Shown here: positions 45,198-57,649 of the stretch, piece by piece
Position numbering within the stretch: the first letter of the stretch is position 1
How the letters are laid out: every line of letters begins with the position of its first letter
Source: Neodothiora populina
Taxonomy: Eukaryota
Assembly (NCBI RefSeq): GCF_041146345.1
Contig: NW_027191405.1
Span: 1,612,001-1,676,000 of the forward strand
Reading direction: 5' to 3'
Length of the DNA: 64,000 nucleotides
Position numbers and translations under genes: made by a program
The notes under the pieces: generated by a model
Database searches by the model: none
The model's input: the letters and a program-made list of their open reading frames with translations, nothing else
What the model was told of the DNA's origin: nothing

Positions 45198-47158
45198 CTA
45201 CTCAGCCTTCTTGGGAGTATCGCCTGCTGCCGCTTCGGCGTTGCTGTCAAGACGAGTTCCATCTGATGACTCCTGATCCTCATCGCCCTTTGTCGCAGCT
45301 CTGTGCGCAATGTCTAGAGCAGGTGCAAAGGTACTCTTCTGTCTGATCTTAGCACCCCTCAGGTAGAATAAGATCGGCAGCGGGACGAGGACCAAGGCAA
45401 CACAGCCAAGCAAAGTGCCTGCCCACTGGACACCCATGCCCTCGATCATGTAAGTTGCAAACAGGGGGAATCCAGCACCGCAGAGAGAGCGCAAAAACGT
45501 GTTTGCGGCAATCGCAGAGGCAGCGAACATCAGATAAGCGTCGATCAGGTAGTTGAGGCATTGGAGGAAGATTGACATCAAACCGAACCCAGTCAAAAGA
45601 CCCGAGAGCGTGGGGACGATCCAATGGATGTCAGCCTTGTATCCTGTCCAGCCAAACCAGAACAAGCCAATGGAGAACAGGAAACCTCCAACGATCGCTG
45701 GAGGAAGACGCCACTCTGGGATGGGGATGTTGCCGTTGGCAGCTAGTTTGCGGTTGTATGACGGTTGTGTCCAAATGATGTAGCCGCCAGCGATGAACTC
45801 GCCGACGATCATACCGAAGTAGGGAAGACCACCAACACCCTTGTTCATCCCGTGGATGCGCTGGAAGACGATCGGGTAGAAAGTGAGGAAAAGATACAGC
45901 AAGCCGTAAATAAAGCTTAGGAAGTTAGCACTCCTGTATTGCCAGTCACATCATGCTCGAGTACTCACGACATGTAGATTGATAAAGCCAGCACAATCGG
46001 TTCCTTGAAGAGCATGCGCATGGGTCTGCTAAGGTTCTTCTCCAAAAGCTCTCGTAGATCGATTTCGATCTCCTCCTGCTTGGCATGGATGCCCCAATTC
46101 TTAGTACGGCGACGTAGCTCCGACGCCTTATTGACAAGGACAACCGGTGGATAAGTCTCCTCCAGGAAGATCAGACTAAGACCTAAGCCGGTGAACGCCA
46201 TGATGGCGGTGATATACTCAGTCCAGCGCCAGCCAAGATAAGACATGTCGATGAATCCTCCTATGAATGGCGCAAGCAGAGGTCCAGAGAAAACAGCGAT
46301 AGAGAACACCGTAATGGCAATACCTCTCGTTCTGTTGTCAAACATGTCTGCGAACACAGCACCAACACAAGTAAGCGGGCAAGCACCCATAAAACCACTG
46401 AAGAATCGGCAGATCATAACTGTCTGCAAGTCTTTACCAACAGCGACGGCAATGCTGAAGATCGAGAAACCGAACGAACTGATGAGTAGAGGTGGGCGGC
46501 GACCATAAAGTTCCGAGAAAGGTGCCCAAAGAATTGGTCCGAATGCGAAGCCCAAGACGTACAGACTCACTCCCAGGATTCCGACCTCGGTAGACACTCC
46601 AAACTGGGCAGCTACCGACGCCGTAGCGGCAGAGAAGACGGACGAGCCAAATGCGGCGCAGAGGGTCACAAACCCAAGTGTGGCGGCAATGATGATCTTT
46701 TTTCGCATGGGCCAATTTTGAGGATGTAGTGGATCAGCTGGGCCTTCATATTCGACAACATACTCCTCTCTTTCCGGCAGTGCAGGAGGATATGGCTTTC
46801 CACCACCGAAAGGTGGCAGGGCCTTGGTTTTCGATGATCGCGTTCTGAAAATGGACACTGGAGCACTTGTTCCGGCCCCCACTGTTGCGACATGTTGACT
46901 TCTGTGGGTATGAATCCTACTCAATGCAGTGGGATGCCTTTCCAAGTCATAGTCTGCTTCGTACACAGTAGGCGCTCGTGACAAACCTGTCCGTGGTGTT
47001 TGTTGTAAGCCATTAACAGGCTGCAATGCTCGAGATCGCTCTGAGGATGACGTTGACGTCCTGGCCATGGTATGTACTGGAACCTCAACCTCTTCGTGGA
47101 ATCGCTCAGGACTGGCCTCTCTCTCGAGCGCCGACATCCTGCGATCTTCTGCATTCAT
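45198..47158 (-). CDS. MFS multidrug/polyamine transporter, DHA1 family (Tpo1/Flr1-like); exons 47158-45969, 45915-45198
   Basis: DPLHPQNW, WAPFSELYGRR, GPLLAPFIGG, WRWTEY, EETYPPV, PEWRL, NYLIDAY; 12-TM pattern; intron 45968-45916. Confidence 0.92.
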
Positions 47159-50549: not shown

Positions 50550-51156
50550 ATTGAGATGTTGCTGTGAATTGTAGTGGCGAAAATGGGTAAGGTAGCTTTG
50601 CGTGCGAGAGGTCCTCTGGCATTCACTTGTGCGTCACAAGCTAATTGCAAATCCAAAGTAAGGTAAGGCAGGTAACACGATATAGTGGCTGCGACAAATG
50701 TCCTGATGATAGAGAAGCAATGAAGTCAGACTAGCCCCGGAGATTTCCCTTTGCGCCGCCAGATCTCCTCCGTCAGGAACAACTCCTACCTTATGCAGTC
50801 ACCATCAACGATTGCATACATCACTTTAATCATGTTTCACCTTTGGTCTTGACATGACCTTCCCACGTCACGATAGTACCATTTGATTGAACTCGACTAA
50901 AGCTAAAGGACAAATGTTGTTCGACGAATACTCAGAGGACTTAACACATGAAACGAGCAAGTCCCGAACACCAAGGGCTACCCTGTCCATATCACACCCC
51001 ACATATCATACAACGTATCTCTACCGTCTAGCCACCGATGATCGTTGAGCACTATTTAGACTCTTCGAATAGCAAGCGTTATGACTATTTGTGATAACGA
51101 CATTTTTAGATTATACATCGCATCGGCCAGGTGTGCCAAAGTTCTTCGCCTCATGA

Positions 51157-54100
51157 TTAAGAGTGACTAGTTTCACTGGATGTGCTGCTCAGCCTTTCCG
51201 ACGTCTGGAACAATAGGTCGAGTTGCGAACGTGCGTTCCTCCCAAGACTCATGGCCAAGAATCGTCGAGCAATTGTTTCCTACACCAGTTAGACACTAAA
51301 CCCAAGGGACTAAATGCCTCGCACTTACAGCATCATTCAGCTCTGAAATCTCATCCTTTGGCATATACGAACACGCAGCTATAAGGTCTTCGCCACGTGC
51401 AGTTCGCAGGATCAATTCCTCGGCTCTCTGTGTGACCCCTCGAGGTATGCCATTCATCGTAGCGCAGACTGTCCCATAGCTGCTGATGCTACGACCCTGC
51501 TTGTAGCTATACCCTGTGTAAGTCACTTTCTCATCAAGGTTTCATTAGCTACCTACGTGTACAAATATGTCACTTGACCATCAGTATGCGGAGCGTGGGC
51601 ATCGATGTGTACTTCTAGATGCCCAAAGGCGAGTGAAGGCCCCGCTCGTAGAAATCCGCCTTCGAAGATCTCTGTGAAGGACATCAGTCATCCAACCACC
51701 CACGAACCTCGATACTCGAACCATGAAAATGTGTTGCTGCAAGGACTTTGGGACTTTCCGATCCACGATTCAGGAGATGCCTGTACACCCCAGCCGCCAG
51801 TCCGGCACCATCTTGATGTCACATTAGTTCGAAATCACCATTTGGCATCATAACACAATCAAGAACACACCCTGTGCTTCAGTTCCCTTGCCGAACTCAT
51901 CCACAATGAGAAGACTGCGCCTTGTTGCTAAATTCAACGCCATCGACATTTGCTGCAAGTCAGTCATGAACGCACTCTGAGCCTGCTTTGATCAGTATGT
52001 TCAATCGGAAATTCTACCCGTTAGGACTCACCCTCGAGACGCTCTCACGAGTCGCTACTCGTGTCAGGATCTTGTCCGTCAGGCCGATCTGTGCGCTATC
52101 AGCAGGAACGAAGCAGCCGACGTGAGCCATGTATACTATTAGTGCAACCTGCTTCAGATACACACTCTTGCCTGAGTAGTTGGGTCCTGTCACCAAGACC
52201 ACTGAAGGCCCATCGCTCCGATCTCTTGCGGTGCGGTTTGGTCGGTCTTCACCAACGACTGCGGCTTGAGAGGCTTCAGTGTCAGAGCAGTCACGCTATG
52301 CTCGCTCTACATCGCCCCCTCCGCCAGCAATGAATGTGTCGTTAGGAACGTAACTCGCCACACTCAACTCTTGCAGTATATGACGACCACCTTTTATGCT
52401 GATGATGTTACGTCCGGTAAGATCTGGTCTTGTCAATTTGTACCTCTTTGCGCCTTGCGCGAGAGCGACTAGGCTGCCATCGTCAGGTAAAATCGCATGA
52501 TATTCACTAGGCGCATCGACACTTACCAGTCGAGTTCGCCGCAAAGATCCGACACCACGGCAATTGTAACTTCGTGCTCCAATATCTTCTCTGCCAATTC
52601 CTGGACTATCTCGATCTCCCTGTCTGGAAAACAATCAGTCTTCGATCTGTCGCAACATAATCTTTACGAAAAGGTATTAGTCCGGACTTTACTACGTTAA
52701 CATACCACAGATGTTCCCGTATATGTCGCCGAAGTAAGCATCCATCTCGGTCATTTTGTCGTTCTTGTAATACACAACTCTTTCGGTCGTGAAAGTCTTT
52801 TCCCAAGGATCACGGTCGTCACCCCCCCATATCCCTGTGCCAGTCTCGGGGTCCAGATCAACAGCGATGAGAAACCCAATTTGTGGGAAGAATATGACGT
52901 TAATCTCGACGTTGATGCCTTGTGGCATACTTAATGAGACGTCTTCAGCAACGCGGGCTAGTATGTCTTCAAGACCATCATACGTATGTTTCAATTGATC
53001 GAGCTCTTCGTCTATGCCGATCTTGACGACCGTCCGACCATACTCTCGCGATAGTTCGAAGTCAACTATCTCGCTTACGTTACGTCCGATTGCGGCAAGA
53101 CGATGACGCTCGAATTTGTCAAAGATCTTCCTATGCATCACAAGCCCTTCGGCTCCAACGAGTTCCTCGAATACATCCGTGATCTTCAGGGCTTGGTAGA
53201 CGAACAGGCGTATATTGGCCCAGACTGGTATGGCAAGTCTACCATTTCCACCAGCACCTGCACTCAGACCTTTCCGAAGGCCCACCAAGACTTGCCGCAT
53301 GTTTTTGACTTGACCAAGGCTCTTGTTGAGGTCTTGTAGGTATGCATCATTCTCGGGCCTCAAGAAGACGCTTATTGAGGCATACCGCTCTTTGATGACC
53401 GCCTCGTTCACACTTGGGCGTAGGAAGTACTGTCGCAGTAAGTGTTTACCTTGAGAAGTACGGGCAAGGTGCTGGAAAAGGCCATAGACCGAAAGGCCTT
53501 CTTTCGAGCCAGAGCCAGTGTTCGTAGGGCCTTGTTTGTGTGAATGCGGATGTGCCTCCGATTGAATTATCTGCAAAGACAGAAGAGTGTCCGTGTTCAC
53601 AAACCTGTCATCGATGTCAGACATGGAGATGTCACAACACAATGGACACAGAACCTACATGGATCCGCTCAGGCTGAACATCTCAAGGTGAGTGATTCGG
53701 TGCAACCCCTGAGAAGCTGGATCGCCGGGCAGAAACATTGTGCCTCTTTTCTTCTGGATATATGTGAGAATCGAGCCCGCACAACCTACCGTGAAGCGAC
53801 TTTCAACGTCAATCCAACCGGCCAGTTTCAAAAGCGTACCCTCACGCCCAACAAACTCATATTCTCCGCCAGGACCTGAGTTCGCATCAGCTATAACATC
53901 ACCGGGAACCACGAATGTCACACGCGGGCCCCTGAGGTCGCCCAAGTCGAGGTTGATGAGCTTGGTCTTTGCTGTTTCAAAATTGAAGTCTGAGTTCGGA
54001 CGAGGCGTACAGATGTTCGACAGATCAAATGTTGTGCCTACAAGGCAAATTAGCAAGAAGACACGGTTCAGCATCCTTTGACTTCGCTCACCGTTACCAT

Positions 54101-54691
54101 CGTCAACATTGTGCCGCTCAGGATCAAGAACATCAAGAATCTCGTCATCCAGCCGTACAGGGTGCAGGATAAGGGTCGGCTCGATGAATATCTTCACTAT
54201 TGTGTGTCAATAAAGTACAAAATGCAGTCTCATGGTAAGAAAGATGTTCATGTACACGCTTCAACAATATCAGCGCCACCCAGCTTTACATCCTCCATGA
54301 AGTACAATTTTTCTTCAGCAGCGACATAATAAGCACAACCAACAGTGCCCCTATCTTTGACATCAATAGCCATAATGATCTCGTTGGAGGCGTCGTCGTA
54401 ATCGTTGGCAACATGGGGCTGAGGTCTGCGATGTTGGGCGCTCGAATCATCTAAGACCTGGTCTGTTTGCCGCGAAAAGGGATGCGACTGATCAGACTGC
54501 AGTGGCATATTGGCTTGATGTGCACTTCTCGAATGAAATATCGGATATAGATCGCGCTGGTTTGGCAGGGCGCGAGGATGAGGATTCGAAGCAGGGAGAT
54601 GGCGACGTTGAATCTGGCGATGAGACACACTATCCGATGTACTCAGACTCTCAGTATCCCTTGTAGCTACAAAGGAAGATGGAAGAGCCAT
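51157..54691 (-). CDS. MSH5: Meiotic MutS homolog Msh5, multi-intron; carries one in-frame TAG at 52298-52296
   Basis: IMAIDVKDRGTVGCAYY, DTLLSLQI, KEGLSVYGLF, FFPQIGFL, GRHILQEL, VTGPNYSGKSVYLKQVAL, SAFMTDLQQ, DEFGKGT, ATHFHEIF. Every other exon junction I traced splices in frame. Confidence 0.88.
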
Positions 54692-55094
54692 TTTTGAGTG
54701 ATTGTGTGAGACAAAAGTGTGTATAAGTGAGCTCTGAGAATTGAGATTGAAATGCTATTTGGCGGGTGGACGATCATACCAGGAAGTCGCCGTGGACTCG
54801 TGCCTTCCGTTCTTATCTTGTGGGAACGTGACTGCAGTCTGAACTCCGAACAGAGCATCTCTCATCATGTCGGTCGTCACTTGCTTGGATTGCTAGTACA
54901 GAAAAAGTGATATGTATATGTACAGTGTCATTATGCTAACCATCTTACATGAATCGTAGATTCGTATCGTGTCCCATGCTATGATGGCTGAGTGTCCTTT
55001 TTCCTTTATGTACAATATGGTATACAGCGCGCTGAGCAGCGTCTAAATGCATTCGTTGGTGAGAAATGGTGAATCCGTTGGAGTGGAGGGGCAT

Positions 55095-57455
55095 TTATGC
55101 AGGAACAATGTCGAGATGTTCGCCGCCTTCTTGGATGGTGACCTTCGCAGTGGTGCCAGTCTTTATACCGCCGCGGATTATCTGGTCCGCCAAAAGATTG
55201 CCGACTTCCTTGGAGATGAGACGGTTGAGTGGGCGAGCGCCGTAGCGAGGGTCGTAGCCTTTGTCACAGAGCCATGCCCTGACATCCTCTGGGACATCGA
55301 GGGTGATGCGACGGTCGTCAAGTCGAGCCTGGAGCTCCTTCAGTCTTATATCGACAATGTCCTTCAGCGCTTCCTTCGAAAGACGCTTGAAGATGATGAA
55401 CTCGTCGATACGGTTGAGGAACTCTGGAGGATACGATGCTTCCGTTACATCCATTACTCGCTGTTTGACTTCAGGAGAGATCTCGCTGCCGGTACTTTCG
55501 TCTTCTACCAAAGCCTGGGCACCAAGATTTGAAGTGAGTACGATCATAGTGTTCCTGAAGTCGACCTTGTGGCCCTGCGAGTCGGTCAAGAAACCTTCGT
55601 CGAGAACTTGCAGCAGGAGAGTGGATATGTCCTTGTGAGCCTTTTCAAATTCATCGAACAGTAACACTGCGTACGGCTTTCTGCGAACGGCCTCGGTGAG
55701 CTGACCAGCGTCTTCGTAGCCGACGTAGCCAGCAGGACTTCCGATCAATCGACTGACGGTGTGCTTCTCTTGGAACTCACTCATATCGAAGCGGATGACT
55801 GCGGACTCGGTCGAGAACAGGAAGGCGGCCATTTGCTTGCAAAGTTCTGTCTTGCCCACACCTGTTGGTCCGAGGAACATGAATGAGGCCAAAGGACGAT
55901 TTTCGCCACTCAAGCCAGCACGCTGCATGCGAACCGCATTGGCGACGGCATGCAGTGCCTCGTCCTGGCCGCGGACATGTTGTCTCAGAGAATCTTCCAT
56001 GTTGATCAACTTCTCGATTTCGCCGCTCATGAGCTTCGATACGGGTATGCCTGTAGTCCTTGAGACAACCGCCGCTATGTCGTCGGAAGTGACGGAGTCA
56101 TGGATCAAAGTGTCGCCGGAGCTGCCCTCGTTCGGTTGTTCTGCACCCTCTTCCGGTAGCTTTCTCGCCAGAGTTGGAATGATGGAGTATCGCAGCTCCG
56201 AAGCTCTGGCGAGGTCTCCGTTACGCTGGGCAATTTCGAGTGCGTTGCGTGCAGCCTCCAGCTCGGCCTTGGTGCTTTTGATTTGCTCGATTTCAGCGCG
56301 CTCCTTTTCCCACTTCTCGGTCAAAGCTCCAGCCTCGTCTTGTTTCAGTGTGAGGCTCTTCTCCAGTTTTTCGCGTCTCTCCTTGCTCGCTATGTCAGTC
56401 TCCTTTCGAAGTGATTCGAGCTCGATCTGGATGGTCATGATCTGTCGGTCAAGCTCCTGAATGGCGTCTGGTTTCGATTCTTGCTGTAAGCGCAGAGCGC
56501 TTGCGGCCTCATCGACCAGGTCAATTGCCTTGTCTGGCAAGAAGCGGTCGGTGATGTATCGGTTGCTGTAGGTGGCAGCGGCAACAAGAGCATTGTCGGT
56601 GATGCGAACACCGTGATGGACTTCGTAGCGATCCTTGATGCCTCGGAGAATCGATATGGTGTCTTGAACACTCGGTTCGTCCACCAGTACAGGCTGGAAT
56701 CTTCGTGCCAGAGCGACATCTTTCTCTATCAGTCGGTATTCGTTGAGGGTGGTGGCGCCACAGCATTGTAGTTCGCCTCGCGAAAGAGCGGGCTTGAGCA
56801 GATTGCTGGCATCGATGCTGCCTTCTGCTTTGCCCAAACCTAAGAGGGTATGGAGCTCGTCGATGAAGAGAATGACCTTGCCGTGGGCGTCTTCTACTTC
56901 TTTCAAGACTTTCTTCAATCGTTCTTCGAAATCGCCTCTGAACTTGGCTCCGGCGATCAACTGACCGAGGTCCAGTGAGATGACTCTTTTTTCTTTGATG
57001 CTTTCCGGCACGTCTCCACGGACGATACGCTGGGCCAGGCCTTCGAGGATGGCCGTCTTTCCGGTGCCAGCTGCGCCGATCAACACCGGGTTGTTCTTAG
57101 TTCGGCGCGACAGGATCTGAATGGTCCGTTGGATCTCTGAGTCTCGGCCAATGACCGGATCCAGCTTTCCATCCTTAGCTCTTTTGGTCAGGTCGACACC
57201 ATACTCCTCCAAGGCCGACTTTTCCTCTCCGCCTGACATATCCATACGGTGGGTGCCCCCGGGGGGATGCGGTCGTCCGCTGGCGTAGGTTCGGCATTGC
57301 AACGCTGTAAGGGGACGAAGGGCGGACGAAGCAGGTCGTAGTAATGAAGTTGATGTCCGCAGTGTCAACGGCGTGCTTCTGACTTGGAGTGTGCGAGGTA
57401 TGCGTGCGGATTGTGCTATGCGCCGGGTGGCACATTTACTTCGTGATGCTAACAT
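55095..57455 (-). CDS. HSP78: Mitochondrial ClpB-type disaggregase Hsp78 (an upstream in-frame ATG at 57593 also exists)
   Basis: Arg/Ser-rich presequence, no ClpB N-domain, two AAA+ modules ([40 protein letters not shown]). Confidence 0.95.
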
Positions 57456-57634
57456 TTTGGCGGTAGACTCGGGAGGAGGGAAGGAAGGAAAGACCAAGGA
57501 TGGAGGCAAGGAGAGTCTAATGTATAGCTGCTTGGGAGACAAGACAGCACTTGTAGCGGCCCGCAGGAGGGACAATGGGTGCTGTGAGTGCAAGTGCAGC
57601 TCCCAGTATCTCCAAGTGTGTCCAAGTATGCACT

Positions 57635-57649
57635 CGAATCATCTCGAAG
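57635..57649. promoter_or_regulatory. Imperfect heat-shock element upstream of HSP78
   Basis: cGAAt-cATCt-cGAAg is nGAAnnTTCnnGAAn with one mismatch, about 180 nt upstream of the ATG. Confidence 0.4.

Follow-up and report, generated by a model that had tools for sequence, protein, structure and literature searches.

A transcribed in-frame TAG codon in MSH5 of Neodothiora populina, probably a recent nonsense mutation masked by an annotated intron

We analyzed a stretch of 64,000 nucleotides from the genome of Neodothiora populina (RefSeq assembly GCF_041146345.1, contig NW_027191405.1, positions 1,612,001 to 1,676,000 of the forward strand), here referred to as the window and numbered from its first letter. 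On the minus strand, the window contains the meiosis-specific crossover gene MSH5, which carries an in-frame TAG codon. The codon, located in exon 6, is truly present as a nonsense codon in the genome and reappears unchanged in the transcript. We consider it probable that the codon results from a recent change of CAG to TAG, which truncates Msh5 before the ATPase domain and has been masked in the annotation by an invented intron. It is observed that the stop is present and transcribed, and we infer that it is recent, that it is derived from CAG and that it abolishes the function of the gene.

A single in-frame TAG in an otherwise intact MSH5 gene

The best protein match to the gene was a 913-amino acid protein from N. 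populina (P0001, Dothideales; 100% identity), and the second-best listed match was only 62% identical. The protein search returned 468 proteins at E <= 0.001, and the ortholog counts given below rest on the best 120 of these 468 proteins. Among the matches listed, the close ones (50-62% identity) bear names such as "MutS protein msh5", "mismatch repair protein 5" and "DNA mismatch repair protein MSH5". The Pfam domains MutS_III (5.8e-20) and MutS_V (1.5e-49) were identified in P0001, with no match to the mismatch-binding domain MutS_I in this protein at E <= 0.01, and the precomputed domain lists of the orthologs are likewise devoid of MutS_I. The gene thus combines a MutS_III core and a MutS_V ATPase domain containing Walker A with the absence of MutS_I and with relatives named MSH5, and the identification as MSH5 in the initial annotation was correct.

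The gene model was obtained by mapping the deposited protein P0001 back onto the DNA and was then rebuilt with 10 GT-AG introns, which are 49-82 nt each. When read through the TAG, the coding sequence consists of 930 codons in 11 exons and contains exactly one internal stop, at codon 637. The features that define the gene and the position of the stop are as follows:

51157..54508, minus strand: MSH5 coding region as annotated, with the start methionine at 54508 and the TAA stop at 51157-51159 (exon map of P0001 and rebuilt model, Pfam, best matches)
52296..52298, minus strand: in-frame TAG, codon 637 of the read-through model (sequence, frame and model; the same letters in the DNA contig X1 and in record 5 of the RNA library X2, both described below)
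52032..52473, minus strand: exon 6, which holds the TAG and runs from the end of the clamp/lever region through the variable linker to Walker A (RNA joint 52473>52527 and contig break at 52031; translation)
52164..52190, minus strand: TGPNYSGKS, the Walker A motif (P-loop) in the ATPase domain MutS_V, downstream of the TAG (sequence, translation, Pfam)

The letters around the stop on the minus strand read GGC GAT GTA GAG CGA GCA TAG CGT GAC TGC, with the TAG at 52298-52296, and a GTG at 52202 is located in frame, 96 nt downstream; both the letters and this spacing had been reported in the initial annotation and were recovered here. Two stop-to-stop frames, 52296..52634 (ending in ...NDTFIAGGGGDVERA) and 52014..52295 (RDCSDTEASQ...PSVVLVTGPNYSGKS...), adjoin at the TAG in one and the same frame. 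The TAG precedes the start of the MutS_V domain, as delimited by Pfam, by 33 codons, and the frame remains open for 294 codons after it. With only one stop in 930 codons, the description of MSH5 as intact except for a single TAG just upstream of the ATPase domain is accurate. We also observed that the open frame extends 61 codons upstream of the annotated start (54509-54691), to an ATG at 54691 (MALPSSF...), and either start is possible.

The TAG codon is present in genomic DNA and in RNA

Contigs from three public sequencing runs were aligned to positions 50900-54900: a DNA library (X1), an RNA library (X2) and a run from a second sample (X3). Contigs were compared rather than raw reads, and contigs drop rare variants and forms. 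X1 and X2 are two libraries of one sample, possibly the source of the assembly, and do not represent two isolates.

The DNA contig X1 (depth 31.4) showed no differing letter across 50900-54900. Run X2, which is labelled "DNA?", displays six joints with CT..AC ends, each of which matches one GT-AG intron of the MSH5 model exactly, and it was therefore treated as RNA. Contamination of X2 with genomic DNA is unlikely since the library leaves 50900-51033, which lies past the 3' end of MSH5, uncovered. Record 5 of X2 (314 nt, 52031-52344, depth 4.7) was recovered with 0 other letters and 0 gaps, and the transcript thus carries the UAG, unspliced and unedited. Because the DNA contig and the RNA contig both carry the TAG unchanged, the codon is not a base-call error, an alternative that the initial annotation had put forward and that is refuted by this agreement.

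A reassignment of TAG to a sense codon was also considered and rejected: 7 of the window's 23 long open frames end in TAG, which thus acts as an ordinary stop codon here.

The contigs from the second sample cover pieces of MSH5 that are 99.5% identical to the window, with 3 differences in 656 nt, at 52239, 53069 and 53101. By codon reading, one of these is silent (CCA>CCG), one changes Ile to Val and one changes Arg to His, which is too few to gauge constraint. The His of the latter change is the residue that is found in relatives such as P0002.

The annotated GC-AG intron over the stop

The introns of the rebuilt MSH5 model and their status in the RNA contigs are:

54197..54255, minus strand: intron 1, donor GTACAT, kept in an RNA contig (model; X2 record 6 colinear over 54091-54900)
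54038..54091, minus strand: intron 2, spliced in RNA (joint 54036>54091, cut +1; model)
53605..53658, minus strand: intron 3, spliced in RNA (joint 53602>53657, cut +2; model)
52624..52705, minus strand: intron 4, spliced in RNA (joint 52623>52706; model)
52474..52526, minus strand: intron 5, spliced in RNA (joint 52473>52527; model)
51983..52031, minus strand: intron 6, GTGAGT...CAG, with RNA contigs ending at both edges (X2 records 4 and 5 end at 51983 and 52031; model)
51812..51870, minus strand: intron 7, donor GTGTGT, kept in an RNA contig (X2 record 4 colinear over 51650-51983; model)
51672..51721, minus strand: intron 8, donor GTTCGA, kept in an RNA contig (X2 record 4; model)
51507..51556, minus strand: intron 9, spliced in RNA (joint 51506>51557; model)
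51280..51328, minus strand: intron 10, spliced in RNA (joint 51278>51328, cut +1; model)

Introns 1, 7 and 8 were retained in the RNA contigs while six others were cleanly spliced. By eye, the donors of the three retained introns (GTACAT, GTGTGT and GTTCGA) look the least consensus-like of the ten. As a consequence of this retention, most of the MSH5 RNA in the sample is unproductive even apart from the stop, and the retention may reflect splicing that is regulated with meiosis.

We enumerated all in-frame GT-AG, GC-AG and AT-AC pairs that span the TAG between 52345 and 52200, that is, from the conserved ND motif to the P-loop. In total, 23 such pairs were found, of which 15 were GC-AG, 8 were AT-AC and none was GT-AG. 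There is thus no canonical intron that is able to remove the TAG, and the phase argument by which the initial annotation had dismissed a plausible intron at this site is correct. The deposited model nevertheless excludes the stop with a GC-AG intron:

52274..52324, minus strand: GC-AG "intron" of 51 nt (GCGGAG...CTGAAG) in the deposited model, most likely a device of the annotation rather than a true intron (P0001 compared to the window; RNA colinear; composition, donor and motif loss)
52314..52325, minus strand: GGC GGA GGG GGC, which encodes the conserved GGxG with which the linker begins (ortholog comparison)

Removal of the stop by non-canonical or conditional splicing, through this intron or another GC-AG pair and perhaps at meiosis only, is an alternative that we regard as unlikely. 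The intron is the one used by the deposited gene model; it is 51 nt long, in frame, and contains a branch-like CTGAC motif 8 nt before the AG. The three genuine introns with weak donors that remain unspliced in the same RNA indicate that splicing of the MSH5 transcript was incomplete in the sampled condition. There is also a parallel in BUD14 of Fusarium graminearum, for which the available text of one study places a premature-stop-correction (PSC) site inside an alternatively spliced intron (PMC11156358).

Several properties of the segment speak against its being an intron. RNA contig X2 record 5 runs colinearly across 52324-52274, without a splice. The segment has a GC fraction of 0.61 and a T fraction of 0.16, as compared to 0.34-0.52 and 0.24-0.37, respectively, in the 10 real introns, and this composition falls inside the range of the exons. 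Its donor, GCGGAG, has an A at +5, where 9 of the 10 real introns have a G, and a G at +6, where 8 of the 10 have a T, and it thereby fails the consensus G-T-R-N-G-T of these introns. GC donors normally require a strong consensus. The annotated intron would also excise the residues GGGG, which correspond to the GGxG motif that directly follows ND-x3-[AV] in 94 of the 110 parsed orthologs (GG alone in 98 of 110). With the intron removed, the linker is reduced to 28 residues, the shortest of the 111 proteins parsed among the 120 listed matches; the others have linkers of 32-46 residues (median 40), and the version read through the TAG has 45. Among the remaining GC-AG pairs, the donors are no better or the linker would be shortened even further. 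Finally, GeneMark-ES permits GC donors ab initio, and a model of this kind needs no RNA support.

Conservation of the protein and origin of the codon

We aligned the read-through MSH5 protein with 101 orthologs of 780-1100 amino acids among P0002-P0120, a length filter that dropped 18 proteins. At 230 columns, conservation was at least 95%, and the N. populina protein deviates at 6 of them, which ranks it 82 of 102. All six deviations are conservative, with five in the 131 columns upstream of the TAG and one in the 99 columns downstream. Judged by these columns and this rank, there is no excess decay of MSH5 relative to the 101 orthologs. The ATPase domain behind the TAG is as well kept as in the relatives, and the stop is therefore either young or located in a gene that is still used.

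The residues at the position of the stop were compared by a local alignment anchored on GGxG in 98 orthologs. In Aureobasidium, which belongs to the same order, seven of eight proteins have a Gln at this position and the eighth has a Tyr. Over all 98 anchored orthologs, the commonest residues were Ala (19), Ser (14), Glu (12), Gln (11), Leu (8) and Thr (6), with Trp outside these six. None of the 110 parsed orthologs, the nearest of which is 62% identical, has a stop codon in the linker or an interchange of TAG and TGG at the site, the pattern by which a conserved edited codon had been expected to reveal itself. Two protein searches, one with a 320-amino acid exon and one with the TAG-spanning exon and an X at the stop, recovered no relatives between 63% and 100% identity, and a metagenome scan with a 30-nt pattern around the codon, with three N at the stop, gave 0 matches.

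A probable recent nonsense allele

The TAG is found in genomic DNA, is carried by the transcript and corresponds to a sense codon in all 110 parsed orthologs, as would be the case for a nonsense allele. The Gln in Aureobasidium fits a single C>T change of CAG to TAG, as far as can be told from sequence comparison, and of the possibilities raised in the initial annotation, a nonsense mutation of this type provides the best fit. The event looks young because there is only one stop in 930 codons and only one of the 99 conserved downstream columns deviates. Under this scenario, the variable linker that joins the lever/clamp region to the ATPase domain would have contained a CAG codon for Gln, which a single C>T change turned into the stop; Msh5 would be cut short after 636 residues and lack the entire MutS_V ATPase domain. 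A crossover gene that is specific to meiosis would then have lost its function in this isolate, or in the species, with the stop concealed in the deposited protein model by an ad hoc 51-nt GC-AG intron. In the available part of one report, Msh4 and Msh5 are described as having been pseudogenised independently in the Eurotiomycetes (bioRxiv 10.1101/750497).

Several observations weigh against a nonsense allele. A functional gene in which the stop is bypassed would likewise be expected to show one lesion only and an ATPase domain that is conserved throughout. The ancestral codon is deduced from another genus only, since no relative closer than 62-63% was found, and the closest listed ortholog, P0002, has a Thr in the stop column. 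The codon has been seen in one sample only, as the contig from the second sample (X3) breaks off at 52283 and misses the TAG by 13 nt. The missing splice over the TAG is weaker as evidence because three genuine introns were also retained in the RNA contigs. TAG is moreover the only stop codon that A-to-I editing turns into a sense codon. MUS81 provides the class II crossover route. One paper, in the portion accessible, did not detect MUS81 in the Dothideomycetes (PMC13199489); if this absence holds, the loss of MSH5 would be costly for the sexual cycle, which would argue for a bypass of the stop if the species is sexual. The context of the stop, with U at -1, G at +1 and G at +3, fits the preferences of fungal editing as given in the available text of PMC11156358. 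No statement on a sexual morph of N. populina was found in the available parts of the literature searched.

Less likely alternatives: A-to-I editing, translational readthrough and sequence artefacts

The initial annotation had suggested that the stop may be corrected by sexual-stage A-to-I editing and that Msh5 may be produced in fruiting bodies only. The UAG would be deaminated there to UIG (read as UGG, Trp), and full-length Msh5 would be confined to meiosis; the PSC genes of F. graminearum operate in this manner. The gene is one that is required only at meiosis and is intact apart from a single TAG, its downstream domain is conserved (one deviation in 99 conserved columns), and the linker around the stop is variable and could accommodate a Trp. 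The candidate edited A is placed in a 3-nt hairpin loop by the minimum-free-energy fold. Premature stops have also been noted at some PSC sites in other classes of the Pezizomycotina, for which editing is "yet to be determined" according to the text available (PMC10776026).

These features were not accompanied by signs of editing. The sole RNA contig over the site has an A and no edited form was seen, which is weak evidence given that contigs lose rare variants and that the life stage is unrecorded. The local RNA fold at the TAG is no better than that of shuffled sequence (z -0.21, with 81 of 200 shuffles folding at least as well). The favorable context pointed out in the initial annotation, U(-1), G(+1) and G(+3), is indeed present, but it is largely automatic for a UAG that is followed by CG.

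The phylogenetic position of the host also argues against editing. In the available parts of three papers (PMC11087585, PMC11156358, PMC10776026), the mRNA-editing function of Tad2-Tad3-Ame1 is traced to the ancestor of the Sordariomycetes, whereas N. populina is a Dothideomycete; the Pezizomycete Pyronema gained editing independently, neither Aspergillus nidulans nor Botrytis cinerea was found to edit on a genome-wide scale, and which further fungal classes edit "remains to be determined". A literature search on the Dothideomycetes recovered no report of editing in titles or the opening lines of abstracts. Furthermore, the stops at PSC sites come mainly from TGG, as stated in the accessible text of PMC10776026, whereas the relatives examined here point to Gln and Trp is not common among them.

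The headline claim of the initial annotation is thus left with no positive evidence, as the UAG is unedited in the one RNA contig that covers it and the fold is unremarkable. Editing is possible, but we rate it as improbable. The same low probability applies to the broader proposal that a Dothideomycete MSH5 is kept off in vegetative cells by a genomic UAG and restored at meiosis by editing of UAG to UGG.

Leaky termination, with ribosomal readthrough of UAG-C at a low rate that yields enough full-length Msh5 for meiosis, is very unlikely. The stop is followed by a C, and UAG-C is of the type that forms the weakest termination context in eukaryotes; the frame is also open and conserved over the 294 codons downstream. 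However, the CGUGAC after the stop contains no known readthrough motif, being neither of the CARYYA nor of the CUAG type, and basal readthrough is usually around 1% or less.

It is more improbable still that the TAG is an artefact, either an error of sequencing or of the consensus or a mutation that only the sequenced culture carries, for although the concordant libraries X1 and X2 come from one sample, possibly the source of the assembly, and small assembly differences exist (X1 and the window differ at a run of 7 G, with 2 letters fewer in X1 at 52822), the DNA library (depth 31.4) and the RNA library agree letter for letter at the TAG, a substitution error common to both is unlikely, and a mutation acquired in culture would still be a real nonsense allele. 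The run of 7 G (52822-52828) is located in exon 4 of MSH5, where X2 record 6 agrees with the window, and the X1 contig is probably wrong because 5 G would break the frame.

Neighboring genes and other stops in the window

Upstream of MSH5, a gene is located on the same strand:

55095..57638, minus strand: HSP78/ClpB gene

One RNA contig of 4863 nt spans from inside MSH5 (52377) past 54900 to about 57500, towards this gene, which suggests read-through transcription. Two of the listed orthologs seem to merge MSH5 and HSP78: P0002 (1634 amino acids) has AAA/ClpB domains and P0077 is named hsp78. Because these annotations seem to merge both genes or their names, the MSH5-HSP78 tandem appears to be conserved in the Dothideomycetes.

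The window was also scanned for single stops between long open frames. This yielded 30 places, and the scan is too permissive to serve as a control. Three of these places were examined and rejected: the TAGs at 827 and 1271 in a gene on the plus strand (101-2420) are both located inside ordinary GT-AG introns with branch-site motifs, and the stop at 45633 is an off-frame artefact inside a transporter gene. By eye, the gene at 101-2420 looks like an X-family DNA polymerase.

Implications

If the TAG is a nonsense codon, the public MSH5 protein model is wrong, with the stop hidden behind an invented intron. Masked stops of this kind are relevant to surveys in which an "intact meiotic toolkit" is used to infer hidden sexuality. 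N. populina has been described, in the available text of PMC8032200, as a causal agent of an aspen canker outbreak; this pathogen would then carry a disabled class I crossover gene, which bears on clonal reproduction. If MUS81 is absent, as indicated in the part of PMC13199489 mentioned above, the loss of MSH5 would hit meiosis hard, and the stop would either mark a lineage that is just abandoning sex or be bypassed.

If the codon is edited, MSH5 would be the first PSC gene from outside the Sordariomycetes and Pezizomycetes, and sexual-stage mRNA editing would be seen there for the first time. Fungal mRNA editing, here with a core crossover gene as its target, would then have arisen either a third time or much earlier. 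The TAG codon in MSH5 is a cheap and sharp test case for stop-correcting RNA editing outside the lineages in which it is known.

Comparison with known systems

We compared the annotated segment to GC-AG introns, a minor class of U2-type introns. It resembles these in its deposited GC...AG pair, in its length of 51 nt, which is typical for fungi, and in being in frame. In contrast to GC-AG introns, it has no strong donor consensus, is exon-like in composition, encodes a conserved motif and was not spliced out of the RNA contig.

The stop itself was compared to the PSC genes of F. graminearum, namely PUK1, AMD1, FgAMA1, FgRID and FgBUD14, as described in the accessible parts of PMC11156358 and PMC10776026. 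The likeness consists of an in-frame genomic TAG in an otherwise intact sexual-stage gene, with U at -1 and purines at +1 and +3. Unlike these genes, MSH5 in N. populina has unedited RNA and belongs to a lineage outside the two with documented editing. The ancestral residue is apparently Gln and not the usual Trp, and the 110 orthologs show no interchange of TAG and TGG.

Another comparison is offered by the Msh4 and Msh5 pseudogenes of the Eurotiomycetes Aspergillus nidulans, A. rugulosus, Talaromyces stipitatus and Eurotium herbariorum, as covered in the available part of bioRxiv 10.1101/750497. As in N. populina, a meiosis-specific crossover gene of the ZMM group is disabled while relatives in the Pezizomycotina are intact. 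In the Eurotiomycetes, the genes are pseudogenised or undetected and were lost along with partner genes, whereas MSH5 of N. populina, a member of the Dothideomycetes, has one stop only and its motifs are intact. By analogy with these cases, a nonsense allele in N. populina would add to the pseudogenisation of Msh4 and Msh5 that is already on record from the Eurotiomycetes.

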